A stretch of 64,000 bases of DNA. Source: Nitrospirota bacterium (GTDB lineage Bacteria; UBA2233). The stretch is from positions 1-64,000 of the forward strand of contig WOZJ01000050.1 of NCBI GenBank assembly GCA_011620345.1, written 5' to 3'. Within the stretch, counting starts at the first letter, position 1. Every line of letters begins with the position of its first letter. The notes under the pieces are model-generated. The model did no database searches. It was not told the origin of the DNA and was given only the letters and a program-made list of their open reading frames with translations. A program made the translations under genes and the position numbers. Positions 14,307 to 34,006 of the stretch are shown one piece after another.

Positions 14307-14699
14307 AAAAATCATCCGCCGATTTCCCCATTCAACTCACACGTTGCACGACGGGCATATCGCCTATTCAAGAGGCGACGGCCAGGTTTTACCTTGTAGT
14401 CGTTGCCGTAGGGCTGGCTCAGAAGTCAGGGTCGCAGGCTCGAATACTCTTTTGTGGAGCAGCAGTTGACAGAGGCAATGAGGATTGATAATCTCAAAAG
14501 GAGTGTTATAATACTATATTATAAAGTAATTTAACGAGACTGTTGACCAAAATAATGTCCGTTACAATTTTAATCCCACAACATCGACGATTCTTGAAGA
14601 AGTCTGAGGCTTTGCGCATGTTTTCATAACAAGATTAAGCTTTATGAACAAACCGAGTTCAATACTCCCGCCTAGGCTCTTTAACCAAGAGGTAAAGCC

Positions 14700-15806
14700 A
14701 TGATCCCCGTAGAGAATCTCGATCAAAGAAGGTACCGCTTAGCGTACCAGGGGGATGCCAAGCAAGGGAATTCGCGTGCCCTGCCTCCTGGTGCCCTGGA
14801 AAAGCTCGAGAAGACGCTTGTCGGCAAAAGCGCCGCTATGAGGGAATTAAAGGCAAACATCCTTAAGCTTTGCCGCCACGATACGACAGTCCTAATTCAA
14901 GGAGAGAGCGGAACGGGCAAGGAGCTTGTCGCTAACATGCTCCATGCGCTGTCCCCCAGGTTTCAAAAGAAGTTTGTCGCGATCAACTGTGCGGCCATGC
15001 CCGAGCAGCTCCTTGAAGCCTTGCTGTTTGGCTACGAGAGAGGGTCGTTTACGGGCGCTGACCGCCAGACAAAAGGCTACCTGGACAATGCCAGCGGGGG
15101 GACGTTGTTCCTCGATGAAATCTCCGAGACCTCCGCCTCGCTTCAGGCAAAGCTCTTGAGAGTGTTGCAGGAGAGGGCCTTCTACAGGTTAGGCGGGCAC
15201 GAGTTAATTCCTGCGGACGTCAGAATCCTTTCTGCCACCAACATGGACCTCCGGGCGTTGGTCGACAAGGGGGAGTTTCGTTGCGATCTCTTCTACCGGC
15301 TCAATGTCGTCAAGGTTGCAACCCCACCCTTGAGGGTACGAAAAGAGGATATTCCCGAGTTGGCCTTGCACTTCTTGCAGGATGTTAGGGAGAACTTGAA
15401 CGGCGAGATTCCGGCGGTAGGTTTCTCGGATTCTGCCATGGCAATGCTGATGAACTACGTTTGGCCGGGCAATGCCAGGGAGCTTCGCAACGCCATCGAG
15501 CACGCCGCGATCTTCGCTCAGTCTGCCCTGATCGAGCCAGGGGATTTCCCCAGGCTGAATGAGGACGACAGGGCCACAATGAAAACACGAGGTTTTTCTT
15601 CAGAAAGGTCGGGTGTCTCTGTTGAGGGCTTAACCGCGGTCGATTTGCGCGAAGCACGCAGACGATTCGAGGAAGACTATTTCCTGGAGCTTTACCGCAA
15701 GACCGGTCACGACCTGAAGGAGGTTGCTAGGCGGGCCGGCGTGGACTTGGCGACCGTCTACCGGAAGTTTGGCTACCTGAGAAAAGCGGATCCCGCTAAC
15801 GAATAA
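14700..15806 (+). CDS. Sigma54-dependent enhancer-binding protein (AAA+ and HTH) lacking an N-terminal sensor domain
   Basis: GESGTGKE, INCAA, GSFTGA, LFLDEI, DLFYRL, WPGN.REL, C-terminal HTH (VARRAGVDLATVYRK). Only about 37 aa precede the AAA+ domain. Confidence 0.93.
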   Translation: MIPVENLDQRRYRLAYQGDAKQGNSRALPPGALEKLEKTLVGKSAAMRELKANILKLCRHDTTVLIQGESGTGKELVANMLHALSPRFQKKFVAINCAAMPEQLLEALLFGYERGSFTGADRQTKGYLDNASGGTLFLDEISETSASLQAKLLRVLQERAFYRLGGHELIPADVRILSATNMDLRALVDKGEFRCDLFYRLNVVKVATPPLRVRKEDIPELALHFLQDVRENLNGEIPAVGFSDSAMAMLMNYVWPGNARELRNAIEHAAIFAQSALIEPGDFPRLNEDDRATMKTRGFSSERSGVSVEGLTAVDLREARRRFEEDYFLELYRKTGHDLKEVARRAGVDLATVYRKFGYLRKADPANE

Positions 15807-15825
15807 CCGGGAGAGGCAAGTCCTT

Positions 15826-17442
15826 ATGGACTCCAGGTATCAGTGCACAGGGATACGTCCCGAGAGGTCGTTGCAGCGCCATAATGGGAGCATGCGTATC
15901 CTATTAGGAGCCATTGAGCTCCATGCCAAGAACAACCCAAACAAGGTGATGCTGGCCACAGAAGGGACCCGTGTAACATACAAAGAATGTTTTGAAAAAA
16001 TAGGCAGGCTTTCTGCCGCGCTCGAAGGTATTGGTCTTAAGATGGGTGAGAGGCTTGCCTTGGTCCTTCAGAACCAACGCGAGTTTATCGAAAGCTATCT
16101 CGCCTGCATGTTTATGGGCGTGATTCCCGTAGTTATCGGCGAAAGGACATTGGGCGAGGATATTGCAGGCATCCTTGCCAGCACGAAGCCAAAAGCCCTT
16201 ATTGTCGGCCGGTCGCGGTGCTCCTTTGTCAAAGACGCGTGCAGACGGGCGGGCCTGAAAGAAGGTGCGTATTGCGGCGTTGTAACCGGCGATCAGCAAG
16301 TAGACGGCTTCGTGGCCTACGAAAGGCTCTTATCCCGTTATGCCCCCTGCAAGGATCCCCTTACGCAGGGGGGTGCCGTTCCTCTCTTCTATACGGCCGG
16401 CACGACGGGGACACCAAAGGGGGTTTACAGGACGAGCTGGAACGAGGGACTGGTTTCATTTATTCTGTCTTCACTCGTTGAGTTTGGTTTTCATTCCCAG
16501 GAGCGCCATTTGGTACTCTGTCCGCTCTACCACAGCGCGCCGTTCTTCTTTTCCATGCTTACTCTGGCGATCGGCGGGACGCTCACGCTCTTGCCCCGCT
16601 TCGAGCCTGCTTTATTCCTAGAGCTCCTTAGAAAAGAGCGCATTACCAGCGCCTACGTACACCCGAACATGCTTACCGGGCTTCTTTCCCTCCCTGAAAA
16701 GCTAAAGCGCGCCTACAAAGACCTTCCCGACCTTCGTATTATCATCTGTGCTGGCGCCCCGCTCTTCCCGGAGACCAAAGAAGGCGTCATCAACTGGCTG
16801 GGCGATAAGCTCTCAGAGTTCTACGGCTCGACGGAGGCCGGGATCAACCTCTACATGCCCCCAGGCGAGATGCGCCGACACATCACGGCCTGCGGCAGGC
16901 CCTTCCCCGGCAACGAGCTCAAGATTATAGACGAGAACGGCAACGAGTGTCCCCCCGGCGTGCCAGGCAGCCTGTTCATCAGGAACCCATGGATGGCTGA
17001 TGCCTACTACAAGGACGAAGAGTCCACAAGGAAGGCCTTCAAGGATGGGTTCGCCCAGTTTGGAGACTTGATGGTCAAGGACCAAGAAGGCTACTACGCG
17101 TTCATCGAGCACGAATCCAATGTCGTTTCTTTGTCCAAGGGAGACGTGTATCCGTACGAAATCGAGCGGGCTCTTCGCCTTCATCCGGGAGTCCTGGATG
17201 CGGCCGTTTTTGGGGTTCCGGGTTTAAAGCAAACGCAGCGGGTGGTGGCCTTCGTTGTCCTAAAGCCTGGCGTAGCGGTGAGCGAAGGGGATCTGTTGGC
17301 TTTCCTGGGTGAGCGGCTTGAGGGCTTTAAAGTCCCGCAAGAGGTCGTCTTTGTGCAAGAGGTCCCAAGAAACCCTGAAGGGAAGGCTCTCAAAAACAAA
17401 ATGCGGCAGTCATGGCTTGAGATGTGTACTGGACTTACATAG
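15826..17442 (+). CDS. Acyl-CoA ligase paralog A (AMP-binding) with degenerate A8 hinge
   Basis: YTAGTTGTPKG, PLYHSAP, YGSTE, GD, PRNPEGK. The hinge reads IEHESNVVSLSKGDVYP instead of VDRKSDMVISGGVNVYP. The start could be 15892. Confidence 0.85.
   Translation: MDSRYQCTGIRPERSLQRHNGSMRILLGAIELHAKNNPNKVMLATEGTRVTYKECFEKIGRLSAALEGIGLKMGERLALVLQNQREFIESYLACMFMGVIPVVIGERTLGEDIAGILASTKPKALIVGRSRCSFVKDACRRAGLKEGAYCGVVTGDQQVDGFVAYERLLSRYAPCKDPLTQGGAVPLFYTAGTTGTPKGVYRTSWNEGLVSFILSSLVEFGFHSQERHLVLCPLYHSAPFFFSMLTLAIGGTLTLLPRFEPALFLELLRKERITSAYVHPNMLTGLLSLPEKLKRAYKDLPDLRIIICAGAPLFPETKEGVINWLGDKLSEFYGSTEAGINLYMPPGEMRRHITACGRPFPGNELKIIDENGNECPPGVPGSLFIRNPWMADAYYKDEESTRKAFKDGFAQFGDLMVKDQEGYYAFIEHESNVVSLSKGDVYPYEIERALRLHPGVLDAAVFGVPGLKQTQRVVAFVVLKPGVAVSEGDLLAFLGERLEGFKVPQEVVFVQEVPRNPEGKALKNKMRQSWLEMCTGLT
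16713..16967 (+). repeat. 255-bp exact inverted repeat, copy 1 (inside ligase A)
   Basis: CTACAAAGACCTTCCCGAC...CCCGGCGTGCCAGG is the exact reverse complement of 19431-19685. The flanks are diverged. Confidence 0.95.
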
Positions 17443-17482
17443 CCTGCTTTGTGCCGCCCAAGCGCAAACCCGTTAGCCTTGA

Positions 17483-17926
17483 GTGGGAATGGCTTGGGCT
17501 AGGAGCATGAATGCCCTCGGAATATGGCGAATGCTGCCTGTAGCGTTCGTTTATGCTGGCCTGGTCGCCCTAGCGGAGCTGACCTTTGGAAACCCGGCCT
17601 TTCCAGCGGCCCTGTGGAGCTTTACGGGGCTTCCCGCTTATTCGTGGAGTGTCCCGGTTCACGCGGCCGGGTTTGTGGTCCTTTTCCTAGCAAACAGGCT
17701 TTTCTTCCGTAAGCCTTTGTATGTGCCCGCTTTGGCAAGCCTTGGCTTCTTTTTTGTTGCCGAGCTGGCCAACCTCGGCGTTTTCCGATATTTTGAGTAT
17801 ACCCAACTCGCACCCTTCGGCCCTTACGCGGCATTCCTTGCCGTTATTCTTCTCTATGCTTTTCTTTGCGCGTTTTGCAGCTTCCTGTTAAGGAAAGTCA
17901 TGGTTGCCATCCCGGTCCGGCGGTAA
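17483..17926 (+). CDS. Hypothetical integral membrane protein (about 4 TM helices)
   Basis: Four hydrophobic segments. It follows ligase A on the same strand. Confidence 0.6.
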   Translation: MGMAWARSMNALGIWRMLPVAFVYAGLVALAELTFGNPAFPAALWSFTGLPAYSWSVPVHAAGFVVLFLANRLFFRKPLYVPALASLGFFFVAELANLGVFRYFEYTQLAPFGPYAAFLAVILLYAFLCAFCSFLLRKVMVAIPVRR

Positions 17927-18008: not shown

Positions 18009-18968
18009 TTAACGCTTTGCCGAGGCCGTGGCTTGTTGGACGGCTCCGAGGATCTCCTCGCATTGCGGCTTATAGAAGGCCTCGTAGTCAAAGAGATAGT
18101 AGGGGTTTTTCCAGTCAAGAACCTTCCTGCAGTAGACCTGCGCCTTTTGGTTGTCGTGCTCGAGCTTGTAGTACAGCCTTGCGAGCTCACAGTAGGGCAG
18201 TGGGTCATTCGGAATTCTCCTGTGTGCCTCCAAAAGCAGCTCTTCGGCCTTTTGCTTGTCTCCGCCCAGGACTCCAGGGAAGTGCCAAAGCAGGCTTGCC
18301 CTTATGACCGTGACGAGGTAGGCATAATCGTAGCCTTCTTCAGCAGGGGGCTTGACTCTCTTGAAATGCGTTAGCACAAAGTCGATGTCTTTCTCGATCA
18401 CCCTCAGGCGTGGAAGGATTTTGCCGACCGAGAAGACGTTCCGTAGCATGCTTTTCCCCCCATAATTGGCATCCAAGATCCGCGCGAGGGACGCCGCCCG
18501 GCCAAAGTGGCAGGTAACGCTGTTAGGGTCTTTTTTGAGCCCCCTTTCGGCGCACTCTGCGGCCGTTGTGTAGCTTTTGACAGCCTTAGCCTTATCGTGC
18601 TCCCGAACGAAGGCGAACTCTCCCTCTTTGAAGTAGGTAAACCCTATGAGGTAATCGATGTCGGCATCGTTTGGGTCGAGCTTCTGTGCTTCAAGAAAAA
18701 GAGTTCTTGCCTTTTTAAGGGCCGATCGGTCCTTGTGCATTTCCATGGAGGCTATCCAGCCCCTATGTTTGAGCCCCTCGGCCGAAGAGGCGTTGGCGTA
18801 CGGCTGGAAGGCCATCAGGCACATCAAAGCCGTGAAGCCGTAGCAAAGGCACAAGCGGATCACGCAACCCCTCGTTATCTTATGTTGCCCATTCTTTTTG
18901 ACACCCAAACGGCTTTCATTCTTGGCTAAAGAATGTTGGCTGTGCTTGAAACTTTCAGTACTGGTCAT
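18009..18968 (-). CDS. Exported TPR-repeat protein, last gene of the TPAT operon
   Basis: ATGA overlap with the ligase B stop and an AAGGAG RBS. Signal-like segment ending AFQPYANA. TPR helices (LDPNDA..DY.IG..Y; PGVLGGDKQKAEELL). Confidence 0.75.
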   Translation of the reverse strand: MTSTESFKHSQHSLAKNESRLGVKKNGQHKITRGCVIRLCLCYGFTALMCLMAFQPYANASSAEGLKHRGWIASMEMHKDRSALKKARTLFLEAQKLDPNDADIDYLIGFTYFKEGEFAFVREHDKAKAVKSYTTAAECAERGLKKDPNSVTCHFGRAASLARILDANYGGKSMLRNVFSVGKILPRLRVIEKDIDFVLTHFKRVKPPAEEGYDYAYLVTVIRASLLWHFPGVLGGDKQKAEELLLEAHRRIPNDPLPYCELARLYYKLEHDNQKAQVYCRKVLDWKNPYYLFDYEAFYKPQCEEILGAVQQATASAKR

Positions 18969-20503
18969 GCGTGCTCCTTGATCCATGCCTCCTTGAGTTG
19001 CGTTTTGAGCGTTTTACCCTGCGGGTTGCGCGGAATTTCATTGACGACCGCGACCTCTTTGGGAACCTTGTAATCGGCAAGCCGTTCTTTCAAAAAGCCC
19101 ACCAATTCTTCCTTGGTAAGAGTCTGCCCAGCTTGCGGGACTACGACGGCGGCCACTCGCTCCCCCCAGTAAGCATCCGGCACACCGATTACGGCCGCAT
19201 CGTAGACCTTTGGGTGAAGCATTATCACCTGCTCGATTTCGACGGGGTACACGTTGACGCCGCCCGAAATCACCATGTCAGACTTGCGGTCCACGATGGT
19301 GTAGTAGCCTTCCTCGTCTTTGATGGCCACGTCGCCCACCGAGATGAATCCATCGCGGAACACCTTCTTTGTTCCTTCCTCGTCCTTGTAGTAGGCATCG
19401 ATCATCCAGGGGTTCTTCATAAAAAGCTCTCCTGGCACGCCGGGGGGACACTCGTTGCCGTTCTCGTCTATAATCTTGAGCTCGTTGCCGGGGAAGGGCC
19501 TGCCGCAGGCCGTGATGTGTCGGCGCATCTCGCCTGGGGGCATGTAGAGGTTGATCCCGGCCTCCGTCGAGCCGTAGAACTCTGAGAGCTTATCGCCCAG
19601 CCAGTTGATGACGCCTTCTTTGGTCTCCGGGAAGAGCGGGGCGCCAGCACAGATGATAATACGAAGGTCGGGAAGGTCTTTGTAGTCCTGCTTGATGCCC
19701 TCAGGAAGGGCCAGCAGGCCGTTCAGCACCGTGGGGACGACGAACGTGCTCGTGGTGCGCTGTTCTTTTAAGAGCTTTAGCATCCCTTCGGGTTCGAAGT
19801 GGCGCATCAAAACAAGCGTTCCGCCTACGGCGAGCGTGAGCGTGGCAAACAAAAAAGGCGCGCTGTGGTACAAGGGGCATACGGCCAAATGGCGCTCGTC
19901 GGAGGTATAGCCATACTCTGAGATGGCGTTCATCACCAAAAAAACGTTGCCTTCAGACATTTTCTCCCTGAAGGCGCCCTTTGGCCTGCCTGTCGTGCCC
20001 GAGGTGTAGATCATCGGGGCCGAGCCCTCTTCGGCCAGCGTGTCCAAAGACGGCGGGTTGGAGGCGATGAAATCCTCGTAGGCGACAAAGTCCTTGGAAC
20101 GCTCCTTGCCCGTTACGATCATCCCGCCATCCAAGAAGTGGTAGGCCTTCCCCTGGACTTCCTCGACGCGCTCCATAAGCGTCCTGTCGACGACGACCGC
20201 CTTGGGCGCGGCGTTCGTAAGGATGTGGACGAGCTCATCGCCCCTTAGCTTGTAGCCCACGAACACGGGCGTTACCCCCATGAGCATGCAGGCCAAGTAC
20301 GTCTCGACGTACTCCGGCTGGTTGTACATCATGAGCGCAAGCCTGTCGCCTTGCTTGAGCCCGAGCCCATTGAAGCCGTTGATAAGGCTCCCGATGCGGT
20401 CAAACCCTTCCTTATAGGTGATACTCCTGCCATCCCCTACGAGCATTTCTTTTGTAGGGCTGGTTTTTGCGTACATGAGGAGCATGTCTGTCAAGCCTGG
20501 CAT
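18965..20503 (-). CDS. Long-chain/aryl acyl-CoA ligase paralog B (canonical motifs)
   Basis: YTSGTTGRPKG, PLYHSAP, YGSTE, GD, VDRKSDMVISGGVNVYP.EIE, PRNPQGK. Confidence 0.92.
   Translation of the reverse strand: MPGLTDMLLMYAKTSPTKEMLVGDGRSITYKEGFDRIGSLINGFNGLGLKQGDRLALMMYNQPEYVETYLACMLMGVTPVFVGYKLRGDELVHILTNAAPKAVVVDRTLMERVEEVQGKAYHFLDGGMIVTGKERSKDFVAYEDFIASNPPSLDTLAEEGSAPMIYTSGTTGRPKGAFREKMSEGNVFLVMNAISEYGYTSDERHLAVCPLYHSAPFLFATLTLAVGGTLVLMRHFEPEGMLKLLKEQRTTSTFVVPTVLNGLLALPEGIKQDYKDLPDLRIIICAGAPLFPETKEGVINWLGDKLSEFYGSTEAGINLYMPPGEMRRHITACGRPFPGNELKIIDENGNECPPGVPGELFMKNPWMIDAYYKDEEGTKKVFRDGFISVGDVAIKDEEGYYTIVDRKSDMVISGGVNVYPVEIEQVIMLHPKVYDAAVIGVPDAYWGERVAAVVVPQAGQTLTKEELVGFLKERLADYKVPKEVAVVNEIPRNPQGKTLKTQLKEAWIKEHA
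19431..19685 (-). repeat. 255-bp exact inverted repeat, copy 2 (inside ligase B)
   Basis: Reverse complement of 16713-16967. It also produces the identical 60-aa shadow ORFs at 16748 (+) and 19468 (-). Confidence 0.95.
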
Positions 20504-20542: not shown

Positions 20543-21418
20543 TTAGAAAAACTTATTTTTATTATTCTTGAGCCAAAGCGCCTTTCTCTTCGAAATATCG
20601 TTGGCCAACTGCATTTCTGGCATCACATTGGCAGGGGTTTTGAGGACGAAATCGATGGTCTTGTCGAAGAGCGCTTCATCGTACACCCCTGTAGCGTAAT
20701 ACCGTGCATAGAAAACATGGGCCAGCAAAAATTTGTTTTCTGTTTTTTTGAAGGCAACAGCGAACTCATTCTTAGCCTTTTCTGTGCCACCGCCGAGCAT
20801 GGGACCCGCAATGATGGCGTAGGCCCCCTGAAAAAGGTGGGGGGCATAATTAAAGTAGGTTTCATCGAGAACAATAAGGCGATCAAACGTGTGCGTGGCG
20901 TCCCCGATACCGATCAGGATGTTGGGGTCATCCATTTCGAGCATGACCCTAAGACCTGCATTCAACCCGTACCAGAAGGCCGCAGGGACATCGCCCTTTT
21001 TGAGGTACTGGGCCAAATCGATCATGTGCTTGCCCGTTTCAAGCCCTTTACGGATTTCTCGATTGCGTACCTTAAGCGCCCTAAGGCCGTAATCCCTGCC
21101 GATTTCGTAGATCTCCGCCGCAAAATTCGGGTCTTCCCACTCGAGAATAAGACCCCAGGCCGCATAGGCCTCTGAAGCAATCGCAAGCAGCTTGTCGTTG
21201 TTTGGTGAAAACTCGACGAGTGCCGAGATGAGCAGGGCGTTGCCTGGAAGGCCCTCTTTAGCCACTGATGCGCTTTGAAAGCCCATCAGATTATCCACGG
21301 TGTGCTTGAGCACGGGTTGAAGAGTGTCTACCCCTTTTCGTTCGACAAAAGAGCAGCTCGAAAGAAGCGCGGCAACGGAAACTGCCCAAACGACGCCAAC
21401 AAAACGATGTCTACTCAT
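20543..21418 (-). CDS. TRAP transporter T component (TatT) lipoprotein
   Basis: Lipobox LLSSC. Motifs PMLGGG.EKAK..F, LLAHVFYARYYA, L.N.I.K.KA. Located in the TRAP operon. Confidence 0.85.
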   Translation of the reverse strand: MSRHRFVGVVWAVSVAALLSSCSFVERKGVDTLQPVLKHTVDNLMGFQSASVAKEGLPGNALLISALVEFSPNNDKLLAIASEAYAAWGLILEWEDPNFAAEIYEIGRDYGLRALKVRNREIRKGLETGKHMIDLAQYLKKGDVPAAFWYGLNAGLRVMLEMDDPNILIGIGDATHTFDRLIVLDETYFNYAPHLFQGAYAIIAGPMLGGGTEKAKNEFAVAFKKTENKFLLAHVFYARYYATGVYDEALFDKTIDFVLKTPANVMPEMQLANDISKRKALWLKNNKNKFF

Positions 21419-21447
21419 GTGGCTGTATCCCTTTAGTTCTAAATAGA

Positions 21448-22764
21448 TCAGACTCCAGACCAAGACGATCCTAAGGGAATCAACTCCTTATTCATTCCTA
21501 GGGCCGTCGGGAGCCAAAGGGTAAGGTCCGGCCAATAGGCGATGAGGATAAGCCCAAGGGCTTGGACCAAAAGCCGTGGAACAACGGCTCTAAACAAAAC
21601 CTCAAGCGGCTCCCTGAAGCGGAACGCTCCGATAAAGAGGTTAAAGCCAATCGGGGGTGTCGAATAGCCCAATTCCAGGTTCCAAAGAAAGATGATGCAG
21701 AAATGGACCGGGTCTATCCCGTAGCCTGTCGCTACGGGGAGAAGGAGCGGGACCATTACGAGGATGGCGCTGAAAACGTCCATCAGGCAACCCGTAATCA
21801 AAAGGATAAGATTCAAAAAGAGCAAAAAGACAAGCCTGCTCTTGATAACCCTGAGTAAGAATTCGAGGAAATGCTGGGGGATCTGCTGGTCGATCAGGAA
21901 GTTCGAGAAGGTGAGCGCGGAGACAAGAATGGCGAAGATCGCCCCGACAAGGACTAGGCTTTCCGTCCCCGCCTCAGTGACCTTAGAGATCGTAACCTCC
22001 CTTCGGATAAGAACCTGAGTGATAAAGATGTAGAGGAGACTTATGATGGCCACCTCGGGAACGCTCATCCAGCCGGCGAAAATTGCGACGATGATGAAGA
22101 ATGGGAGCGGGGCCTCCAAGGCCACGGCCTTCAGCGAAGCGATGGCGGGTTTCCATTGAAAGGGGGAAGAGGGAATTCCAGCACGGTAAGCATGGATGAT
22201 GCAGTAGACGATGTATATCGCCGTGAACACAATCCCCGGCAAAAGGCCCGCAACGTAGAGTTCGTCTGTCGCCTGGTAGGAGATGAAGCCGATCACGATG
22301 ATGGGCAGGCTTGGTGGAAAGAGCATGCCTTGCCCGCCGCAAACCGTGCAGGTCCCCAGGGCGAAGTTTTTATCGTAACCCGACTTCATGAGGGCGCTGT
22401 AATAAATTCCCCCGAGCGCCATGACGGCCAGGGCCGAACCCCCAGTGAGGGCGCTGAAGACGGTGTAAGCGATGACAGTGGCAATCGCCAACCCACCTGG
22501 CAGCCAACCAAGCCAGTGATTGGACAAATCGGCCAGCCTCTGGGAAGCCTTTGAGTAACTCAGGATATAACCCATGAATGTGAAGATCGGAAGGGCCAAG
22601 AGGCCAGGGGCCTCCATCACGATCTTGACCTGAGTGATCATCGCCTGGAGAGGGACATGGGCGACCTCGGCGAAATAAAGCGCAGCCAAAAGCCCAAGTA
22701 CGGCCAAAAGGGGAGTCCCGATTAAGGCCGAAAGCAAGATGCCCGAAGCGAGAGCAGTAACCAT
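21448..22764 (-). CDS. dctM: TRAP transporter large permease DctM
   Basis: LALPIF, GWLPGGLA, PPSLP, IDPVHF, ELGY.TPP.G.NLF. Confidence 0.92.
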   Translation of the reverse strand: MVTALASGILLSALIGTPLLAVLGLLAALYFAEVAHVPLQAMITQVKIVMEAPGLLALPIFTFMGYILSYSKASQRLADLSNHWLGWLPGGLAIATVIAYTVFSALTGGSALAVMALGGIYYSALMKSGYDKNFALGTCTVCGGQGMLFPPSLPIIVIGFISYQATDELYVAGLLPGIVFTAIYIVYCIIHAYRAGIPSSPFQWKPAIASLKAVALEAPLPFFIIVAIFAGWMSVPEVAIISLLYIFITQVLIRREVTISKVTEAGTESLVLVGAIFAILVSALTFSNFLIDQQIPQHFLEFLLRVIKSRLVFLLFLNLILLITGCLMDVFSAILVMVPLLLPVATGYGIDPVHFCIIFLWNLELGYSTPPIGFNLFIGAFRFREPLEVLFRAVVPRLLVQALGLILIAYWPDLTLWLPTALGMNKELIPLGSSWSGV

Positions 22765-22774
22765 GCTAAGCCTC

Positions 22775-23320
22775 CTAGGCCTTTAAAAGGGCGGTTAGGG
22801 CCATACGTAAGGCACTCGAGGCGTAAAAATAAAAGACTACGAGGTAAAAGGGCCAGGTGGGATAGTCGTAGTACGTCGATCGGTCTCCCGTGCGGATCAA
22901 CGTTTGCAGGTACTCAAACGTGGCATAGGTAAAGATGGCGAAGACCAAACACGCCATGAGGTAGGCCACGATCCTGACCGCCTTCTTCAAGGTAGGGTTT
23001 TTGATGTACCGGACGATGTCAATCCTGAAGTGCTCAAGTCTTGTCGTGGCAAGGCAGGCCCCGAGAAAACCCGACCAGAGCATACTGTACTTCACCATGT
23101 CCCCCATCCAAATGTAGCCGACAGAGAAGAATGCCCGTAAAAACCACTGGAGAAAGGCGCCGGTGCAAAGGAGGATGAGAAAAAACAACATCAGCGCTCT
23201 TTCGATGAATAAAAACCTCTCATTGGCTTTCTGGAGCCATCCCTTCCAACCGCCCAGCTTGGCATAGCGAGGTCTGCTGAAGTTGAGGTTTTCTTGATTG
23301 GATAGAGCTTCCTGCACCAT
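22775..23320 (-). CDS. dctQ: TRAP transporter small permease DctQ
   Basis: Four TM helices, LW.GFLGA.LA....HFRID motif, located between dctP and dctM. Confidence 0.85.
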   Translation of the reverse strand: MVQEALSNQENLNFSRPRYAKLGGWKGWLQKANERFLFIERALMLFFLILLCTGAFLQWFLRAFFSVGYIWMGDMVKYSMLWSGFLGACLATTRLEHFRIDIVRYIKNPTLKKAVRIVAYLMACLVFAIFTYATFEYLQTLIRTGDRSTYYDYPTWPFYLVVFYFYASSALRMALTALLKA

Positions 23321-23331
23321 GATTGTTTCCT

Positions 23332-24777
23332 CTATTTTTTTTGGAAACCCTTGTACCTTGGGCTCCTTAGGTAGCCCACAATCTCTTGAAGCCTTTGGTT
23401 AAGCGCTTCCTTAGTGCCGTAGAGTTTTTTGATGTCGTTTTTATAAGGAAGAACGTACTTCTCCATTTCTCCTTCAGCCCTGTAGTTCCCGAGCCATGCG
23501 ATAAAAGTGTCTGTCTTTCCTGTCTTGATGATCTCTTCCGAGGCCCCGATGAGGTCGTAAAGCCGCCATTTTTCGATGACATGATCGCTTTCCAGCTTGC
23601 CGAGTTCCTCCTTGGAGCCGGTCTTGATGTAGGTCTCGAGGGCGTCGGCTACCTTTTTTTGCCTTTCCGGAAAGTTCGCGTACGAAGGATCGGCCTCAAA
23701 GATGGCCTTTTCTATGGAGGTATCGTAACCTGCGAGGGCAGCCGATATTTTTTCGTAGGCATCGCGCTTTTCCTTGTCATTGCCCAAATAGGCTACCCTG
23801 TAGGCTAGGCAGGGCTCTTTCCACGCCTTGAGCTCTTCGGGGCTAAGCGAGATCACCTTGGAGCCGTATTTGAGCATCGCCTTGGTAAAGGCCACGGCCC
23901 CGTCGCGCATGGTACCGTTTATGTTCCAGTGAATGAATGGGGTTATAGCAAGGAATGCGATGCGGAAGCCGTTAGGCAGCCTTTCGAACGCCTGCCTGGT
24001 GATCATGGGCGCCGTCATTGACGTCCTTATGGGTGGCTGGACAATGTAAGGGAGAGCCGTGTAAATCTGCATGCCGATGACGAACATGGAGGGTAAGATC
24101 ACGGCATTCGAAAGCCCTGCCTTGAACGAGGGGAACATCTCGGGGGGCTGAATAGGAACCTGTGGAATCCCATGGGCCCTAAAGAACGTATCGTCAGGCC
24201 CGCCCGTGTAGTTGCAAGCTTTGACGTTGTTTTTCAGGGCTTCAGGCGTCCGCCATGAACCTGCCAAATAAAGATCATGGATTCCTTCTGTCAGCTCCAA
24301 GAAGTTTACAAACCCCTTGTCCCAAAGGACATCGTTGAAGTCCTTCATTGCCGTCATGGCCCTGTCAAACTGGCCATAGTCGTTGATCAGGTAGGCCATG
24401 TAGACGACTTCGAGCTTTCTTGAGATCGAGGGTTGGGCGTTGACGGTGGGTGTCACGACATCCAATTGGCCCATCTGGGCCTTCTGGAGCATCTGGTTGT
24501 CATCGCCCATGACACCCCCGTAGTAGGGGATGAACCCTATGTCGTACCCCAAGTTTTTCCCTATGGGTTTGAAGAAATCCTTTTCAACGGATTCCAGGGC
24601 ATTCGTCACGTTTGTCCCTTTAGGCCCCAGAGTCCCAAACTTGAGCCTAATCTTGGGAAGCTCCTGGGAAAAAGCCATACCCTCAAGCCCAACAAGCATT
24701 GAACAAGCCCAACAACTGGCGCAGACAAACGACTTAAGGCCATTTCGCCGAAACCATGCCCTTTTTTGAGAACTCAT
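23332..24777 (-). CDS. dctP: TRAP substrate-binding protein DctP (TatP-like) with a C-terminal extension
   Basis: Signal peptide, LKFGTLGPKGT, YYGGVMGDD.QM..K...GQLD. At 481 aa it is longer than a typical DctP. Confidence 0.85.
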   Translation of the reverse strand: MSSQKRAWFRRNGLKSFVCASCWACSMLVGLEGMAFSQELPKIRLKFGTLGPKGTNVTNALESVEKDFFKPIGKNLGYDIGFIPYYGGVMGDDNQMLQKAQMGQLDVVTPTVNAQPSISRKLEVVYMAYLINDYGQFDRAMTAMKDFNDVLWDKGFVNFLELTEGIHDLYLAGSWRTPEALKNNVKACNYTGGPDDTFFRAHGIPQVPIQPPEMFPSFKAGLSNAVILPSMFVIGMQIYTALPYIVQPPIRTSMTAPMITRQAFERLPNGFRIAFLAITPFIHWNINGTMRDGAVAFTKAMLKYGSKVISLSPEELKAWKEPCLAYRVAYLGNDKEKRDAYEKISAALAGYDTSIEKAIFEADPSYANFPERQKKVADALETYIKTGSKEELGKLESDHVIEKWRLYDLIGASEEIIKTGKTDTFIAWLGNYRAEGEMEKYVLPYKNDIKKLYGTKEALNQRLQEIVGYLRSPRYKGFQKK

Positions 24778-24837
24778 GCCATCTCCCTTTCGCCGCGTTA
24801 ATTAGATTTCACTCGACCCTACCGCCTATAAATACGT

Positions 24838-24853
24838 AGCAAAAACATTGCCA
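24838..24853 (-). promoter_or_regulatory. Sigma54 (-24/-12) promoter for the TPAT-ligase operon
   Basis: Minus strand TGGCAA-TGTTT-TTGCT (GG-N10-GC), about 60 bp upstream of the dctP start. Confidence 0.8.
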
Positions 24854-24924
24854 AGAGAATGCTTCCATAAAACCGCACTTCTTAAGGTAATAACCAAGAT
24901 GGGGACCGGTGACATTTTTGCAGG

Positions 24925-24940
24925 TTTGCAAATTTGCAAA
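24925..24940. promoter_or_regulatory. Candidate enhancer (UAS) palindrome shared by both sigma54 promoters
   Basis: Perfect palindrome TTTGCAAATTTGCAAA within a run of TGCA units, centred about 80 bp from each -24/-12 element. Confidence 0.6.
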
Positions 24941-25015: not shown

Positions 25016-25031
25016 TGGCACGGTGATTGCT
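25016..25031 (+). promoter_or_regulatory. Sigma54 (-24/-12) promoter for the flavoprotein operon
   Basis: TGGCAC-GGTGA-TTGCT, a perfect match to the consensus. Confidence 0.88.
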
Positions 25032-25085
25032 ATCCATATATAGCAGGAATGGTTTGACATGATGATCCAATACCGAGGGACTAAA

Positions 25086-26801
25086 ATGGCAAAGCTTCAC
25101 TATGACATCGTGATCGTAGGCGGTGGGCCGAACGGGCTTGCCGCGGCGGCCTACCTGGCCAAGTGCGGGCTTAGTGTTTGTATCCTTGAAGAAAGGCTAG
25201 AGGCCGGAGGGGGAGCAGAAAACACCGAACCAATCCCCGGCTGCCGGATCGATCCTCATGCCACCTACCTCTACGGAGCATACGCGCCCGGGTTCGATCA
25301 GCTCGAGCTGGACAAGTTCGGTTTTCGGATGAGCCATGCCAGGAATTTCGGTGGGGTCGTCAACTACGATGGCACGGGGACTGCGGCCGGTCTGTACAAC
25401 ATAGAGTATACGCTAGAACAAATAAAAAAGCGCTCGCCGAAAACGGCGGAAACGTTCCGCTACCTTTACGACAACCTCTTTACCCCAAAGAACCTGGGGA
25501 ATTTCTTGCGCTCAATCTACTGGACGCCGCCCCCGCCTGTGGGGATGCCCATGGACAAGAGCGATTACCCATGGTCGCAAGTGCTCAAAAAGCTCTTGCC
25601 CGGTCTCTACGACGATGTCTGGAACGATTTCAGCGGGTTCGAGCTTATGGATGCCTTATGGGATTGGGAGCCCCTTACCGCTGCCCTTGGTCTGGCAAGC
25701 TGGTACAACGGGCCCCATCCGATGTGGAAAGGGGTCGGCATTCAGGCATTTGCCTGCAATCTTTTAATGCTGGGCAGCAATGGGGTCCCAAGGGGCGGCA
25801 TGCATTCCTACATGCACGCCCTGATAAGGTGCGCCATGTTCCACGGGGCCAAGCTTATCACGAACTGCAAGGTCGAGGAGATCCTCGTCGAAGACGGCGA
25901 GGCCAAAGGGGTCAGGCTCGCAGAAACCTCCCCCCTGGGAAACAGAACTATTTGGGCGGACAAGGCCGTCATCGCGAACACCCATATCAAGCAAACCTTC
26001 CTCGATCTAGTCCCCAAAAGGCACCTTGACCAGGATTTCGTCCAAAAAATCAAAGACATCAACCTCAACGGCGGCAGCCTCTACGTCATGCACCTCGTTT
26101 GCAAGGAGCTGCCCAAGTACGTAGGGGAACAAGGTGAGATTATGAAAGGCAAGAACTACCCGATTGCCTTGGTTGGACCCTGCGACAGCCGAGAGTATCT
26201 CATCAACCAAACGATCGACGTGTACTCGCACCGTACCCACCCTCTAAGGAAAGAGAGCATGACGTTCGTCATCGGTCAACACGACATCATTGACCCGAGT
26301 AGGGCGGGGGGCGATCTGTTTGTCGTTTCTCCGATTTACCTGCAGATGCCGCCTCCGGAATACCACAGAGACGGACCAAACGCTGTCAATAAGGCAAAAG
26401 ACGAGATCAACCACGCGATTCTCGGCGCAATCAGAGAAATGGCCCCGAACATGACGGAGGACAATATTGTTCATATGTTCGTGAACACGCCGGAGGATTC
26501 CTCGTTCAGAAACCTCGGGTTTGTCGGGGGAAACTGGTACGGAACGCGTCATGATCGAGACCAGTGGTGGGAAAAAAGGCCGCTACCCGAGCTTTCCAGG
26601 TATCGGACGCCGGTTGACAAGCTCTATCTTTGCAACCAAAGCTCCTACCCCGGCGGGCTGTGCTTGATGGCCGTACCCTACAACTTGATGCACGTCTTGA
26701 TCGAGGACGGGATCGCAAAACCGGGAGAATGGTGGTACCCATCGCCTTGGTACATTCCGGAATCTGAGGCGAGGTATTCTCGTTCTAAGGTTCCTGCATA
26801 A
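25086..26801 (+). CDS. COG1233 FAD oxidoreductase (phytoene desaturase superfamily), alpha-type subunit 1
   Basis: IVGGGPNGL.AA.YLAK.G..V..LE.R.E.GGG, HAT motif, YRTPVDKLYLC..SYPGG. GAGGGA RBS before ATG 25086. Confidence 0.9.
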   Translation: MAKLHYDIVIVGGGPNGLAAAAYLAKCGLSVCILEERLEAGGGAENTEPIPGCRIDPHATYLYGAYAPGFDQLELDKFGFRMSHARNFGGVVNYDGTGTAAGLYNIEYTLEQIKKRSPKTAETFRYLYDNLFTPKNLGNFLRSIYWTPPPPVGMPMDKSDYPWSQVLKKLLPGLYDDVWNDFSGFELMDALWDWEPLTAALGLASWYNGPHPMWKGVGIQAFACNLLMLGSNGVPRGGMHSYMHALIRCAMFHGAKLITNCKVEEILVEDGEAKGVRLAETSPLGNRTIWADKAVIANTHIKQTFLDLVPKRHLDQDFVQKIKDINLNGGSLYVMHLVCKELPKYVGEQGEIMKGKNYPIALVGPCDSREYLINQTIDVYSHRTHPLRKESMTFVIGQHDIIDPSRAGGDLFVVSPIYLQMPPPEYHRDGPNAVNKAKDEINHAILGAIREMAPNMTEDNIVHMFVNTPEDSSFRNLGFVGGNWYGTRHDRDQWWEKRPLPELSRYRTPVDKLYLCNQSSYPGGLCLMAVPYNLMHVLIEDGIAKPGEWWYPSPWYIPESEARYSRSKVPA

Positions 26802-26838
26802 GACTTAAGACCAGTTTAAAGATAGGGAGGTCACGATA

Positions 26839-28512
26839 ATGGCGCAAGTTTTCTCGGAATATGCAGAGTGCTCCGTAAAAAGGCCTGACGATTATCCGCT
26901 TAAGGAGCTCGACAACGTCATTCAGGCGGATGCCGTCGTCATCGGCGGCGGCCCGAACGGACTGATTACGGCGGCCTATTTGGCCAAGGCCGGGGCTAAG
27001 GTTGTCTTGTGCGAGAAACGCTACGAGGTAGGCGGTGGTCTGGCCACGGAAGAGGTCATGTTTCCCTGTTTTTTCGCCAACACGCACGCTACCTACCACA
27101 TGATGGTGGACTACATGCCGCCCATCAGGGATTTTCAGATGGAAGAGCTTGGCCTTCGCTGGATTCGGCCAAACGCGCAGGCGGGGCTTGTGCTCAAGGA
27201 TGGGAGAGGCCTTCTGCTCTCCCACATGCTCGAAGACAGCTGCGACTCGATCCTGAAGTTCTCGAGGGACGACGCCGCCGCGTTTGGGAGGGTTCTCCCC
27301 GAGTTTCATCGGATGGTCGAAGAATTCCTGGCGCCTGCGACCTACTGGCCGCCTGTTCCCCCTGTTGACCTTGCCCAGGCGATGCAGGTTACGGAAGTTG
27401 GCAAGGAACTCGCAGAAATCTCCGAGATGAGCCCGCTCGAGGTGGTGGATCGCTACTTCGACGACAAGCACCTCAAGGCTTTGGTGACCTATATCACCTG
27501 TATGTGGGGGTTGAACCCCAACGAAGGGGGTATGGGTTTTATGGTACCCCTTCTTTTGGACCGAGGGCTGAGTAAGCGCCTCTGTTACGGGGGCTCGCAC
27601 AAGTTCTCCGGAACACTGAGCAAGCAGGTTTACATGAATGGGGGGCTCATCTTAGAGAATGCCGAGGTCACCAAAATTATCATCGAGAACGGCAGGGCTG
27701 TGGGCGTGCAAATGTACGACGGCAGGGAGGTGCGGGCCAAGGTGGTCGCTTCCAGCCTTGATCCCCAGACGAACTTTTTGAAACTGGTGGGCAAGGAGCA
27801 CTTGGACAAGGCGATGATAAGCAACGTGGAGGGGTGGAAGTGGGATAAGTGGAGCCTCTTCACCGTTCATTTGGCGCTTAACGAGCCCCCCAAGTACAGA
27901 ACGGACGACGCCATGATCAACGAGGCCTTCTTGAACGTCCTTGGGGCGGAGACCCAAGACGATGTGCTCGATTATTTTGATTCCGTCCTAGCCGGAAACC
28001 CCACGAACCTCGTGGGCCATGTGAGCTGTGAGACGCTCTACGACCCCACTTACGTGCGCGTGCCCGGCAACAAGCACACGGCCTTCTTCCAGACCCCCGC
28101 CCCCTACGACATCCAGGGCGGCTGGGAAAAGCGCCAAAAAGAGCTCACCAAACAAGCGCTAGAGGTCTGGAGAACCTACGCCCCGAACATAAGCGAGGAA
28201 AACATTATTATGGTGTCCTCCGAGACTCCCTTGGATATCGAGGCACGGATTGCCAACATGGTCCGCGGGTCCTTCAAGCACGGCGATTACAACCCCATAC
28301 AGATGGGGTACTTCAGGCCGAACGACATCTGCTCTGCCTCCAGGACCCCGATCGAGGGAATGTACCTCTGCGGCGCTTCCATGTACCCTGGTGGGCTGAT
28401 TATCGGAGGCCCCGGCTACATCGCGGCCAATACGATCGCTGAAGACATGGGGCTAAAGAAGTGGTGGAAAATTCCAGACAATATTAAAAAATACATCGAG
28501 ACGTACCTTTAA
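26839..28512 (+). CDS. COG1233 FAD oxidoreductase, beta-type subunit 1
   Basis: VIGGGPNGL, GGGLATEE, NTHATYHM, MVRGSFKHG..P.QMGYFRPN, RTPIEG.YLCGAS.YPGG. Confidence 0.9.
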   Translation: MAQVFSEYAECSVKRPDDYPLKELDNVIQADAVVIGGGPNGLITAAYLAKAGAKVVLCEKRYEVGGGLATEEVMFPCFFANTHATYHMMVDYMPPIRDFQMEELGLRWIRPNAQAGLVLKDGRGLLLSHMLEDSCDSILKFSRDDAAAFGRVLPEFHRMVEEFLAPATYWPPVPPVDLAQAMQVTEVGKELAEISEMSPLEVVDRYFDDKHLKALVTYITCMWGLNPNEGGMGFMVPLLLDRGLSKRLCYGGSHKFSGTLSKQVYMNGGLILENAEVTKIIIENGRAVGVQMYDGREVRAKVVASSLDPQTNFLKLVGKEHLDKAMISNVEGWKWDKWSLFTVHLALNEPPKYRTDDAMINEAFLNVLGAETQDDVLDYFDSVLAGNPTNLVGHVSCETLYDPTYVRVPGNKHTAFFQTPAPYDIQGGWEKRQKELTKQALEVWRTYAPNISEENIIMVSSETPLDIEARIANMVRGSFKHGDYNPIQMGYFRPNDICSASRTPIEGMYLCGASMYPGGLIIGGPGYIAANTIAEDMGLKKWWKIPDNIKKYIETYL

Positions 28513-28513
28513 G

Positions 28514-28613
28514 NNNNNNNNNNNNNNNNNNNNNNNNNNNNNNNNNNNNNNNNNNNNNNNNNNNNNNNNNNNNNNNNNNNNNNNNNNNNNNNNNNNNNNN
28601 NNNNNNNNNNNNN
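28514..28613. other. Scaffold gap (100 N)
   Basis: Run of N; the true size is unknown. Confidence 1.
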
Positions 28614-28632
28614 AATAAGGAGGTTAAATAGA

Positions 28633-29016
28633 ATGAAACTTTGGTCTAAAGGTTTAGGTCGAACCGAGCTCGAAATGGACTTCCGCTGCTACGAGGTCGT
28701 CGGCGAGAAGCGCTCGAATGGCAACGGCAGCTCGGGCGAGGGGATCGTTGGCGTGTACGGGACGATCACGACGCCCGTCAACTGGGACTTCCGCGTGGAG
28801 TTTGGACCTGAGGACGTTCCCGGCCTTATCCGAATCGCGCTCACCCCGCCGTTCTTGAAGATGATCTTTAGGAATTTCTTGCTCTACTTCTCGTTCCTTA
28901 AAAACCGGGACCAGTTCCGTCAAGGAAAAAGGGACGAGGTTCTCGCCAAGGTCAAGAAGACGCACGCGACGATGGTCATGGGGGTAAGGAATCGGAGAAG
29001 CGCTGTAGAAGCTTGA
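28633..29016 (+). CDS. Small hypothetical protein embedded in the flavoprotein operon
   Basis: Strong AAGGAGG RBS. MKLWSKGLGRTELEMDF...GTITTPVNWDF. Co-directional with the COG1233 genes. Confidence 0.8.
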   Translation: MKLWSKGLGRTELEMDFRCYEVVGEKRSNGNGSSGEGIVGVYGTITTPVNWDFRVEFGPEDVPGLIRIALTPPFLKMIFRNFLLYFSFLKNRDQFRQGKRDEVLAKVKKTHATMVMGVRNRRSAVEA

Positions 29017-29082
29017 GAACGGCCAGCCGGAAAACGGCTATCGAGAACGTATCTTTGGATTGAAGAAGCAAAGGAGAGTGGA

Positions 29083-30822
29083 ATGCCGGATTATGACGTG
29101 ATCGTGGTCGGGGGAGGGGGGGTCAACGGGCTAACGTGCGCCTCCTACCTAGGAAAGGCCGGACTAAAAGTACTTGCACTCGAAAGACGAGGACAGTGCG
29201 GGACGCACTGCGATACGCTGGAGCCTGGGATACCCGGCTTTTTGCACAACCTGCATGCAACGTGGATTGTGGCCGGAAATTCCTCGGCTATGGCGGATTT
29301 AGAGCTCGAGAAGCACGGGCTTGAGCTGCGAACGACGAACTACGCCTACGCCAAGACTTTCTTGGACAAAAAAAACGCCCTTCTTGGGTACTTTACGGAC
29401 GATACCATAGCGAACTGGGCAAAGCTATCCAAAAAGGATGCCGAGACATTCGAAAAAATGGTGAACGCCGTTTTTAAAGATATTCCGAGCGCTATCGAAG
29501 CGTTCCATGAGATGTCGGAAAGACCCCCTTCGTATGCATCCACCAAGAAGGCGAGCGACGCCCTTTTATCGAACGCACTCGGTTCTGTGGGTGTTCATTT
29601 GGGTTTTTCCGAAATTTGGCAGATGAACGGGTTTGAGCTGCTGAACCTGCTTTTCGAATCCGAACATGTTAAAACGATGCTCGCCTCCCTTGCCTGGATC
29701 GCCGGCTTCCCGCCCATTCATAGGGCTGTGGGTTCTTTTGCTGGAGCTGTCTCTGCCCTTTTTGGAGGCCCTTTGGTTGCGATCACGCAAGTCAAGGGGG
29801 GTTCGCATGGGTTGGCTCATGCTCTCGTAAAGTCTTGCGTGGCCAATGGGGTGGAGATCCGCACGTGCTGCCCGGTTAAAAAAATCCTTGTCGAAGACGG
29901 CAAAGCGGTAGGCGTGGAGCTCGAAGACTACGCCCTGTTCCCCTCCGAGAAAATCACGGCCAAGGCCGTCGTTAGCAATTGTACGGCCGTTCCCACGTTT
30001 ATTCACATGATCGGAGAAAATCATCTGCCTGAAGAAATCGCGGAGAGGATCAAGACGTTCGTTTATGACGAACAAGTCCTGTTTGGGGCCCATTACGCCA
30101 TTAAAGAACCTCCCGTATGGACATCGGCCGACTTTGATCCTGGCGTTCAGAGGGCATTTATGGGGTACATGGGCGGTGAAACGATGGAAGAGATGGAGGG
30201 TTATGCGGCAAGCCTCGTGAGTGGGCGTATTCACGATAAGGTGATTGCCAACTGGTTTGTTCCCACGCTTGCCGACCCCACGCAGGCGCCGGACGGCTGT
30301 CATACGATGTTCGTGTGGTTTGACGTCCCGCCATGCCCGGGATCATGGAAGAACAGAAGGCTGGAAGGGAACCTGGAAGTCTGGCACAAGATCAAGTATG
30401 AGATGATGGACGAAATTACGGAAGGTATCGAGCAGTTTGCGCCGGGATTCAAGAAGTCCATCATTGAGAGGTTCCCCTATACTTGCGCGGACGTCTTCAG
30501 GAACAACCCCTCGGCTATCAAGGGTTGTTGGGACGGAGGAAGCGCCATCCCCGATCAATTCTTTGCCAACCGGCCCGTTCCTGGGGTCATCAAGCCTTTA
30601 TCGGGATCTCGGACGTTCATTGACAACCTTTATCTTTCGAATTCAATCCACCTTCATGGAAACTCATCGCTTAGTTCTGGGTATATATGCGCTAGCGAAG
30701 TTGCAGAGGATTTCGGTGTTCGAAACAAAGACTGGTGGAAATCAAGGGCAGGCGAGTGGTATGTGGAGAACCTCTACAGGATCCCGAAGGACTTGGGCGT
30801 AAAAGACCAGTGGAAAGGCTAA
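29083..30822 (+). CDS. COG1233 FAD oxidoreductase, alpha-type subunit 2
   Basis: VVGGGGVNGL, NLHATW, GGSHGLAHAL, ILVEDGKAVGV, RTFIDNLYL. Confidence 0.9.
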   Translation: MPDYDVIVVGGGGVNGLTCASYLGKAGLKVLALERRGQCGTHCDTLEPGIPGFLHNLHATWIVAGNSSAMADLELEKHGLELRTTNYAYAKTFLDKKNALLGYFTDDTIANWAKLSKKDAETFEKMVNAVFKDIPSAIEAFHEMSERPPSYASTKKASDALLSNALGSVGVHLGFSEIWQMNGFELLNLLFESEHVKTMLASLAWIAGFPPIHRAVGSFAGAVSALFGGPLVAITQVKGGSHGLAHALVKSCVANGVEIRTCCPVKKILVEDGKAVGVELEDYALFPSEKITAKAVVSNCTAVPTFIHMIGENHLPEEIAERIKTFVYDEQVLFGAHYAIKEPPVWTSADFDPGVQRAFMGYMGGETMEEMEGYAASLVSGRIHDKVIANWFVPTLADPTQAPDGCHTMFVWFDVPPCPGSWKNRRLEGNLEVWHKIKYEMMDEITEGIEQFAPGFKKSIIERFPYTCADVFRNNPSAIKGCWDGGSAIPDQFFANRPVPGVIKPLSGSRTFIDNLYLSNSIHLHGNSSLSSGYICASEVAEDFGVRNKDWWKSRAGEWYVENLYRIPKDLGVKDQWKG

Positions 30823-30832
30823 GGGGGAAAGA

Positions 30833-32446: not shown

Positions 32447-32472
32447 CACGCTTAAAGGAGGGGTGATAGGGT

Positions 32473-33996: not shown

Positions 33997-34006
33997 GGGG
34001 TGTTCC

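Follow-up and report, generated by a model that had tools for sequence, protein, structure and literature searches.

Organization of the locus

We analysed a 64-kb stretch of DNA from a Nitrospirota bacterium (assembly GCA_011620345.1, contig WOZJ01000050.1, positions 1 to 64,000; hereafter the window), in which the gene for a sigma54 activator is followed by that for a degenerate paralogue of an acyl-CoA ligase. The source genome (G000) amounts to 1.8 Mb in 72 contigs and is 96.8% complete, and a sister genome of the same genus (G001) is 93% complete. The activator (14700..15806, plus strand, 368 aa) has a short N-terminal tail, an AAA+ domain with a GSFTGA loop, a lid, a linker and a putative C-terminal helix-turn-helix. 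It is followed on the same strand by ligase A (15826..17442, 538 aa), a paralogue from the ANL superfamily whose A8 and WGE motifs are degenerate and which we propose, tentatively, to be a sensor pseudoenzyme, and by a small membrane protein (17483..17926, 147 aa), the final gene of the operon. Ligase B (18965..20503, minus strand, 512 aa) is an intact acyl-CoA ligase with all ANL motifs, and is 56% identical to ligase A overall.

The activator stop codon ends at 15806 and ligase A starts 19 nt further on, the spacing given in the initial annotation. A ribosome-binding-like site, GGGAGAGG, lies upstream of the ligase A start and is conserved in the sister genome. The first 23 codons of ligase A form an N-terminal extension that is not present in ligase B. 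We had suspected that translation begins instead at Met23, given a ratio of nonsynonymous to synonymous substitution rates (dN/dS) of 1.6 over these 23 codons and one database model that starts there. We rejected this start on two grounds: the ribosome-binding-like site ahead of 15826 is in a more favourable position and is conserved, and an N-terminal extension is likewise found on the divergent A-type proteins; 15826 is thus favoured over Met23, with some uncertainty.

A sigma54 activator without a sensor domain

Some sigma54 activators, such as PspF and HrpR/S, have no sensor of their own. The activator described here was suggested from its sequence to be of this kind, and domain searches bear this out. 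Pfam assigns Sigma54_activat (PF00158) to residues 40-206 (E = 4.7e-66) and AAA_lid_14 to residues 212-292, and finds no REC, GAF, PAS or other N-terminal family in the approximately 39 residues before the AAA+ domain. The Walker A sequence GESGTGKE, the Walker B sequence LFLDEI and the GSFTGA loop are present in the translation and conserved in orthologues, giving the protein the features of an enhancer-binding protein, namely an AAA+ sigma54-interaction domain, Walker A and B motifs and a GAFTGA-type loop. In its AlphaFold2 model, residues 1-25 have a predicted local distance difference test (pLDDT) score below 50, the AAA+ core is confident and residues 287-312 form a disordered linker. Residues 313-363 form a three-helix bundle (pLDDT 78-86); this segment is conserved among orthologues and gives no match to the Pfam family HTH_8.

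All seven orthologues that we found are 317-368 aa long, and none has a sensor family. Beyond these seven, matches to the activator reach at most 57% identity, and mostly carry REC, GAF or PAS domains. Within G000 there are seven strong matches to the activator, and the open frame at this locus is 373 aa, compared with 453-569 aa for the other six. To judge from its sequence, the activator is like the PspF/HrpRS type in having no N-terminal regulatory domain. The source genome also has a match to the rpoN DNA-binding domain. Compared with G001, the activator has a dN/dS of 0.24. Its synonymous divergence (dS) between the two genomes is 0.16 (G001 copy at 8315-9421 of locus L015), three to four times below the values for ligase A (0.51) and ligase B (0.73). 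This low value could reflect recent gene exchange or constraint at the nucleotide level.

Loss of thioester-associated motifs in ligase A

Ligase A retains the two-domain architecture of ANL enzymes, with PF00501 matching residues 32-395 (E = 2.4e-69) and PF13193 matching residues 445-520 (E = 1e-17). On the NCBIfam model for a long-chain ligase subfamily it scores 318 bits, versus 422 bits for ligase B. We compared its motifs in an alignment of 122 proteins (P0002-P0123), consisting of the two window ligases and 120 relatives, in which eight A-type proteins were set against the 113-114 other relatives.

The A8 motif reads VDRKSDMVISGGVNVYP in ligase B and IEHESNVVSLSKGDVYP in ligase A, and the degenerate linker and hairpin of ligase A (FIEHESNVVSLSKGDVYPYEIE) are encoded by codons 426-446 (17101..17163, plus strand). 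The A8 hinge had been described as lost from ligase A, and the alignment extends this to the whole A-type group. All eight A-type proteins are missing the arginine (present in 113/113 relatives), both aspartates (112/113 each), the second glycine (113/113) and the asparagine (112/113). The WGE loop, in which Trp, Gly and Glu are each found in 113/113 relatives, has lost its Trp and Glu in 8/8 A-type proteins and its Gly in 6/8. The positions lost in every A-type protein cluster at 412-471. The A7 aspartate and A10 lysine, which had been noted as kept, are retained by all eight, as are A3, the A4 histidine and the A5 sequence YGSTE, so that the set of adenylation motifs is complete with the single exception of a Thr-to-Met change in the P-loop (A3) of P0015. 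The relatives have 92 positions with at least 95% invariance, 57 of them in the N-terminal domain and 35 in the C-terminal domain; the A-type proteins retain 44 of the former but only 13 of the latter (Fisher p 1.7e-4, which is indicative only, since the sequences are related). One supposed sign of degeneration, YTAG in place of YTSG, does not hold up: alanine is the majority residue at that position, occurring in 87 of 114 non-A relatives.

Structural work on ANL enzymes gives these losses a possible meaning. In the available part of PMC8905533, the arginine before the hinge is described as holding the ribose hydroxyls of ATP or AMP, the hinge residue itself as variable, the glycine-containing A8 hairpin as entering the active site in the thioester conformation, and the conserved C-terminal lysine as serving adenylation. 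Ligase A has neither the arginine before the hinge nor the glycine hairpin that mark the linker and A8 region of acyl-CoA synthetases. Read against this background, its sequence has lost the thioester-specific hairpin and one nucleotide contact and has kept the adenylation set. Having lost the arginine of the linker, the glycines of the A8 hairpin and the WGE loop, ligase A is most likely unable to complete formation of a CoA thioester, and because the lost arginine also binds ATP or AMP, even adenylate formation is uncertain. We considered loss of the WGE loop as proof of inactivity and rejected it: a solved rhodopseudomonad benzoate-CoA ligase also lacks WGE and yet has the A8 Arg, Asp and Gly, and we therefore put the weight on A8 rather than on WGE.

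The AlphaFold2 model of ligase A has two domains, both confident (pLDDT 84.7). In fold matches against the PDB it superposes on adenylate-forming conformers, with template-modelling scores (TMq) of 0.83-0.86. As AlphaFold2 frequently picks the adenylate-forming state, we give this match little weight. Elsewhere in G000 there are at least 11 further matches to ANL ligases.

Selection, age and co-occurrence

The degenerate motifs lie in a gene that is under purifying selection. Against the sister genome, dN/dS is 0.20 for the whole of ligase A, 0.19 for the N-terminal domain before a tract shared with ligase B (residues 24-295, the tract being described below), 0.07 for the tract, 0.27 for the C-terminal domain and 0.86 for the 21 A8 codons. 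For the part of ligase B available in G001, it is 0.10. The value of 0.20 excludes neutral decay of ligase A, an outcome that the initial annotation had named as one that would undo its proposal. In a tree built without the tract, the A-type proteins form one clade (support 100/100) with long branches, including two proteins approximately 55% identical to ligase A, and the B-type proteins form its tight sister clade; the partial protein P0016 was left out.

The activator, ligase A and ligase B lie on a single contig in both G000 and G001, where ligase B is cut by the contig end, and the activator and ligase A are also adjacent in G001. Clusters for all three proteins occur on same-sized contigs in three more assemblies (42199, 30929 and 64355 nt), and clusters for the activator and ligase A do so in a fourth (17715 nt). 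Judged by equal-sized contigs in further assemblies, the pairing of a truncated activator with a hinge-less ligase persists over a deep split, including the approximately 55%-identical lineage. The 30929-nt lineage is 85% identical to G000 in ligase B, 67% in the activator and 56% in ligase A; at the sequence level, the activator and ligase A diverge together, and much faster than ligase B.

A locus scan of metagenomes with the A-type alignment found no relative, and one with P0008 returned a single 1.7-kb fragment. The scan of the genome collection for the A-type context gave only the sister genome and one unrelated match; the genomes searched comprise one same-genus relative of G000, the remaining 39 being listed as "same domain". 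A profile search of the whole library was swamped by giant nonribosomal peptide synthetase proteins, and P0014 was the sole A-type representative to appear.

The small membrane protein contains some four hydrophobic segments. Its counterpart in the sister genome shares 77% identity and likewise follows ligase A. We could assign it to no family in Pfam and similar resources, and an atlas look-up gave unnamed clusters only (scores 0.90-0.91). Of its seven database clusters, four lie on contigs equal in size to those with A-type or B-type ligases, one of them being the 64355-nt contig of the divergent lineage. The small membrane protein may belong to the regulatory module as a third component.

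A tract shared by the two ligases

The initial annotation had pointed to a segment of ligase A that is identical to the intact ligase. This segment is an exact 255-nt match in inverted orientation between positions 16713..16967 (plus strand) of ligase A and 19431..19685 (minus strand) of ligase B, with nucleotide identity falling to 45-65% in the flanks. At the protein level, 85 of 86 residues are identical within the tract, compared with 46% identity in the part that precedes it and 50% in the part that follows. A5 and the loops from there up to A6 fall within the tract; in ANL structures these usually make up two of the three stretches that surround the acyl pocket.

To judge whether the duplication is genuine, we compared metagenome contigs from four independent studies (X1, X2, X4 and X7) over positions 14400-18000. 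Contig pieces from X1, X2 and X4 stop at 16740-16742 or begin at 16713, and the next pieces begin at 16938-16984. In these three studies, the tract bins are covered two to four times as deeply as the flanks. Contig ends left loose at 16713 (X4) and 16967 (X2) run into sequence encoding the ligase B flanks, and one X7 contig spans the ligase A flank into the tract. The broken pieces, the extra depth and the loose ends running into ligase B flanks together show that the tract duplication is real and no artefact of binning or assembly. The inverted exact copies, 2.5 kb apart, could also mediate inversion of the intervening segment. One X2 contig joins 17018 to 18000 on opposite strands, possibly as an artefact of ligase B sequence.

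In G001, the tracts of ligases A and B are 96-100% identical to each other, and between G000 and G001 the ligase A tract has a dS of 0.63. In a third lineage (42199-nt contig), the A tract is closest to that lineage's own B tract, at 95%. Such identity within genomes, combined with divergence between them, indicates repeated conversion within each genome, that is, concerted evolution. The tract is much closer to B-type sequences from other lineages (88-95%) than to divergent A-type sequences, which on sequence grounds points to conversion from B to A. In the divergent lineage, A and B are 66% identical in the tract and 41-45% in the flanks, and the pair of activator and ligase A is still present; conversion is therefore the habit of one sublineage and not a requirement of the system. 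The proposal that conversion keeps the specificity of ligase A matched to that of the enzyme accordingly stands for the genus-level lineage, where A and B tracts are 95-99% identical, and fails for the divergent lineage.

Promoters and target operons

The activator operon is preceded by a gene for tRNA-Asn (14231-14306), which lies directly upstream of it. The 390-nt non-coding stretch that separates the two contains a sigma70-type promoter-like site (14485..14512, plus strand; TTGATA, a 16-nt spacer and TATAAT with TG) with 11 of 12 matches. For sigma54 promoters, we scored the pattern TGGCAC-N5-TTGCW on both strands of the window, with a maximum score of 11. There are 22 sites with at least 9/11, none of them between 14073 and 20095. 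Only two exceed 9, and both lie inside the 281-nt gap at 24778-25058, which corresponds to the region (24780-25060) that the initial annotation had named for a sigma54 reporter. The two matches are oriented outward, each towards its own operon, and together with the rpoN match they provide what a cognate sigma54 system would need. The match TGGCACGGTGATTGCT (25016..25031, plus strand) is the best in the window at 11/11 and ends 27 nt before the ATG at 25059. The second best, TGGCAATGTTTTTGCT (24838..24853, minus strand), scores 10/11 and faces the transporter operon. Between them is a 24-nt inverted repeat, TTTGCAGGTTTG/CAAATTTGCAAA (24917..24940), a candidate binding site for the activator. 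Ligase A lies in the sigma70-type operon of the regulator and not behind the sigma54 promoters, and its paralogue ligase B lies behind one of them. A DNA search of G001 with the promoter region yielded nothing beyond a 62-nt stretch next to a paralogue of the binding-protein gene, with no sigma54 motif.

The minus-strand operon reads, from 24777 to 18009, through genes for a DctP-like binding protein, DctQ, DctM, TAtT, ligase B and a second tetratricopeptide repeat (TPR) protein (18009..18986). Its first four genes (20543..24777) encode a tripartite ATP-independent periplasmic (TRAP) transporter: DctP-like at 23332-24777, DctQ at 22775-23320, DctM at 21448-22764 and TAtT at 20543-21463. Pfam families PF03480, PF04290, PF06808 and PF16811 on these four adjacent genes identify a TRAP transporter of the TPR-protein-associated type (TPAT). 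The available part of PMC5812351 associates this type with the import of hydrophobic molecules and with organisms that degrade hydrocarbons. The DctP-like protein is 481 aa long, with its family match at residues 46-321 and a C-terminal extension of approximately 160 aa without assignment.

On the plus strand, a putative catabolic operon (25059..35203) encodes four CrtI/CrtO-like flavin adenine dinucleotide (FAD) oxidoreductases, a 127-aa open reading frame, an aldehyde dehydrogenase and an Fe-alcohol dehydrogenase. The four tandem oxidoreductases (25059-32446) are 537-580 aa long and lie behind the best sigma54 match, and no equivalog model fits them. The substrate of this operon may be an isoprenoid or a long-chain compound.

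Possible roles of ligase A

Our preferred reading, to which we give a probability of roughly 0.45, makes ligase A a pseudoenzyme that binds a ligand and acts in trans to control the activator. A sensorless activator, a selected hinge-less paralogue in the operon of the regulator, faster divergence of these two than of ligase B and deep persistence of the pair are together easier to reconcile with a sensor paralogue than with an isozyme, a decaying duplicate or a neighbour of no relevance. The sequences themselves show the anatomy, the motif losses, purifying selection, conserved co-occurrence and the promoter matches; that ligase A binds a ligand and the activator, and in which direction it acts, we infer. 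The three-gene regulatory operon of activator, ligase A and small membrane protein would be driven by the sigma70-type promoter and would control the two divergent sigma54 promoters at 24838-25031, one leading to the TRAP transporter and the working ligase B, and the other to the operon for the oxidoreductases, aldehyde dehydrogenase and alcohol dehydrogenase. Ligase A would be an old duplicate of ligase B that has kept the acid- and ATP-binding N-terminal domain and the A10 lysine. It may bind the pathway acid, perhaps as a trapped acyl-AMP, and ligand-driven closure of its C-terminal domain could change its hold on the AAA+ domain of the activator. By analogy with PspA/PspF, NifL/NifA and HrpV/HrpS, it would most likely be an anti-activator that is released by the ligand. 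A fuller version is more doubtful, and we think it rather unlikely to be right in every part: the pseudo-ligase would be a ligand-gated partner that traps the acid, possibly as acyl-AMP, and frees or engages the activator, maybe through the small protein at the membrane, with B-to-A conversion locking its specificity in one sublineage.

Several observations weigh against the sensor reading. The arginine before the hinge, normally placed on the ribose of ATP or AMP (available part of PMC8905533), is gone, and ligase A may bind nucleotide poorly. Loss of WGE is by itself not disabling, given the benzoate-CoA ligase without it. The divergent lineage, with its 66% tract identity, has persisted without recent conversion. 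Adjacency of the genes outside G000 and G001 is inferred from equal contig sizes only, and the system is confined to one narrow lineage, the comparative sample being small and its members related. The membrane protein is, by its sequence conservation, an equally conserved candidate partner of the activator. Finally, the first oxidoreductase of the proposed target operon has no match at E 1e-50 or better in the sister genome, which is 93% complete.

The strongest alternative, though we consider it unlikely, is that ligase A is a working adenylating enzyme with another second step, as in an acyl-AMP ligase or an amide-bond-synthetase-like enzyme that needs no A8, and that it is co-transcribed for convenience while the activator is controlled otherwise. 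Retention of all adenylation motifs and purifying selection would both be expected of such an enzyme, and the model superposes best on adenylate-forming conformers, with the amide bond synthetase McbA among the top fold matches (TMq 0.83). McbA, however, is only slightly ahead of other ANL enzymes in these matches, the ribose-holding arginine found in 113/113 relatives is lost, no carrier-protein or amine-handling gene lies nearby, and the gene is placed with the regulator instead of in the sigma54-driven operons. Less likely again is that the activator answers to the small membrane protein, to its own cellular level or to the two combined, with ligase A accessory or unrelated. Membrane sequestration of activators is known, for example from RedR2/BtdS and NifL (available part of PMC10084136), and the protein is conserved in the same operon, at 77% identity in G001, and found on a contig whose size matches that of the divergent lineage (64355 nt). 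This would leave unexplained why selection maintains, within that operon, a paralogue of the regulated enzyme that lacks the hinge, and no family or function can be assigned to the membrane protein.

The two remaining alternatives deny ligase A a distinct role, and we regard both as improbable. Ligase A could be a slowly decaying duplicate without a function of its own, its frame kept open partly through conversion from ligase B. The nearly neutral A8 codons (dN/dS 0.86), the long branches of the A clade and the patching of 255 nt by conversion would all suit slow decay. Against it stand the dN/dS of 0.19-0.27 outside the tract, the retention of 44 of 57 invariant N-terminal-domain positions and a frame that is intact in 8/8 cluster representatives, including the approximately 55%-identical lineage without recent conversion. 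The least probable reading takes ligase A as an isozyme of ligase B, a conventional acyl-CoA ligase whose A8 motif is unusual. Its Pfam matches to AMP-binding and AMP-binding_C run end to end or almost so, and it matches the long-chain subfamily model at 318 bits, but that score is about 100 bits below the 422 of ligase B, and residues invariant in 112-113 of 113 relatives are lost right where the thioester conformation forms.

Relation to known regulatory systems

The kind of control proposed here is known, in that partner-controlled activators and trigger enzymes are already established. According to the available part of PMC10084136, protein-protein contact is an established means of controlling FleQ, NifA, PspF and DhaR, and pathway enzyme subunits acting as trigger enzymes, DhaK/DhaL with DhaR and BtdS with RedR2, report substrate status by binding directly to enhancer-binding proteins. 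As in PspF/PspA, HrpR-HrpS/HrpV and NifA/NifL, the gene of the candidate partner is linked to that of an activator that is sensorless or under a separate anti-activator. Unlike in those systems, the candidate partner is a paralogue of an ANL ligase, not a PspA-type coiled coil, HrpV or the PAS/kinase-like NifL. DhaK/DhaL and BtdS are catalytically active and bind the GAF/PAS N-terminal domain of their regulators, whereas the activator in the window has no such domain, and ligase A is a separate paralogue apparently disabled for the second half-reaction, with the intact ligase B kept alongside.

Ligase A shares the two-domain fold and the A3, A4, A5, A7 and A10 motifs with ANL acyl-CoA synthetases, the closest solved structures being the feruloyl/fatty-acyl-CoA synthetases 8wev and 8weu and MatB (4fut). 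In contrast to these enzymes, all eight A-type proteins have lost the arginine of the linker, the Gly and Asn of the A8 hairpin, and the WGE loop. The transporter resembles the TPAT of Treponema pallidum (TatT/TatP(T)) in combining DctP-, DctQ- and DctM-like genes with a TAtT-family TPR protein, and differs from it in having a second TPR protein and the 481-aa binding protein.

We found no description of an ANL pseudo-ligase as the partner of a sigma54 activator in full-text searches of open-access papers and bioRxiv. If the sensor reading is true, sigma54 activators would gain a new input module in the form of a dedicated, catalytically impaired paralogue of the acyl-CoA ligase of their own pathway. 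This would also be a clear case of an ANL-fold pseudoenzyme, illustrating one route from a duplicated enzyme to a ligand sensor. The design would be portable, as any acyl-CoA ligase could supply the sensor pocket. Within genomes, the conversion tract offers a natural and rare instance of concerted evolution that may couple the specificity of the sensor to that of the enzyme.

Genomic surroundings

The surroundings of the activator and ligase genes differ between the two genomes. Upstream, G001 (L015 1-8300) has a resistance-nodulation-division (RND) efflux system and an IS1595-family transposase where G000 has the tRNA-Asn gene. Downstream, G001 carries an additional 3.7 kb with a DUF3368 gene between the membrane-protein gene and the TPR gene. 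The activator/ligase block may be mobile or rearranged. No RNA run was listed as containing the stretch, and the DNA runs that do contain it are labelled as oil field, soil, marine sediment, seawater and sludge.

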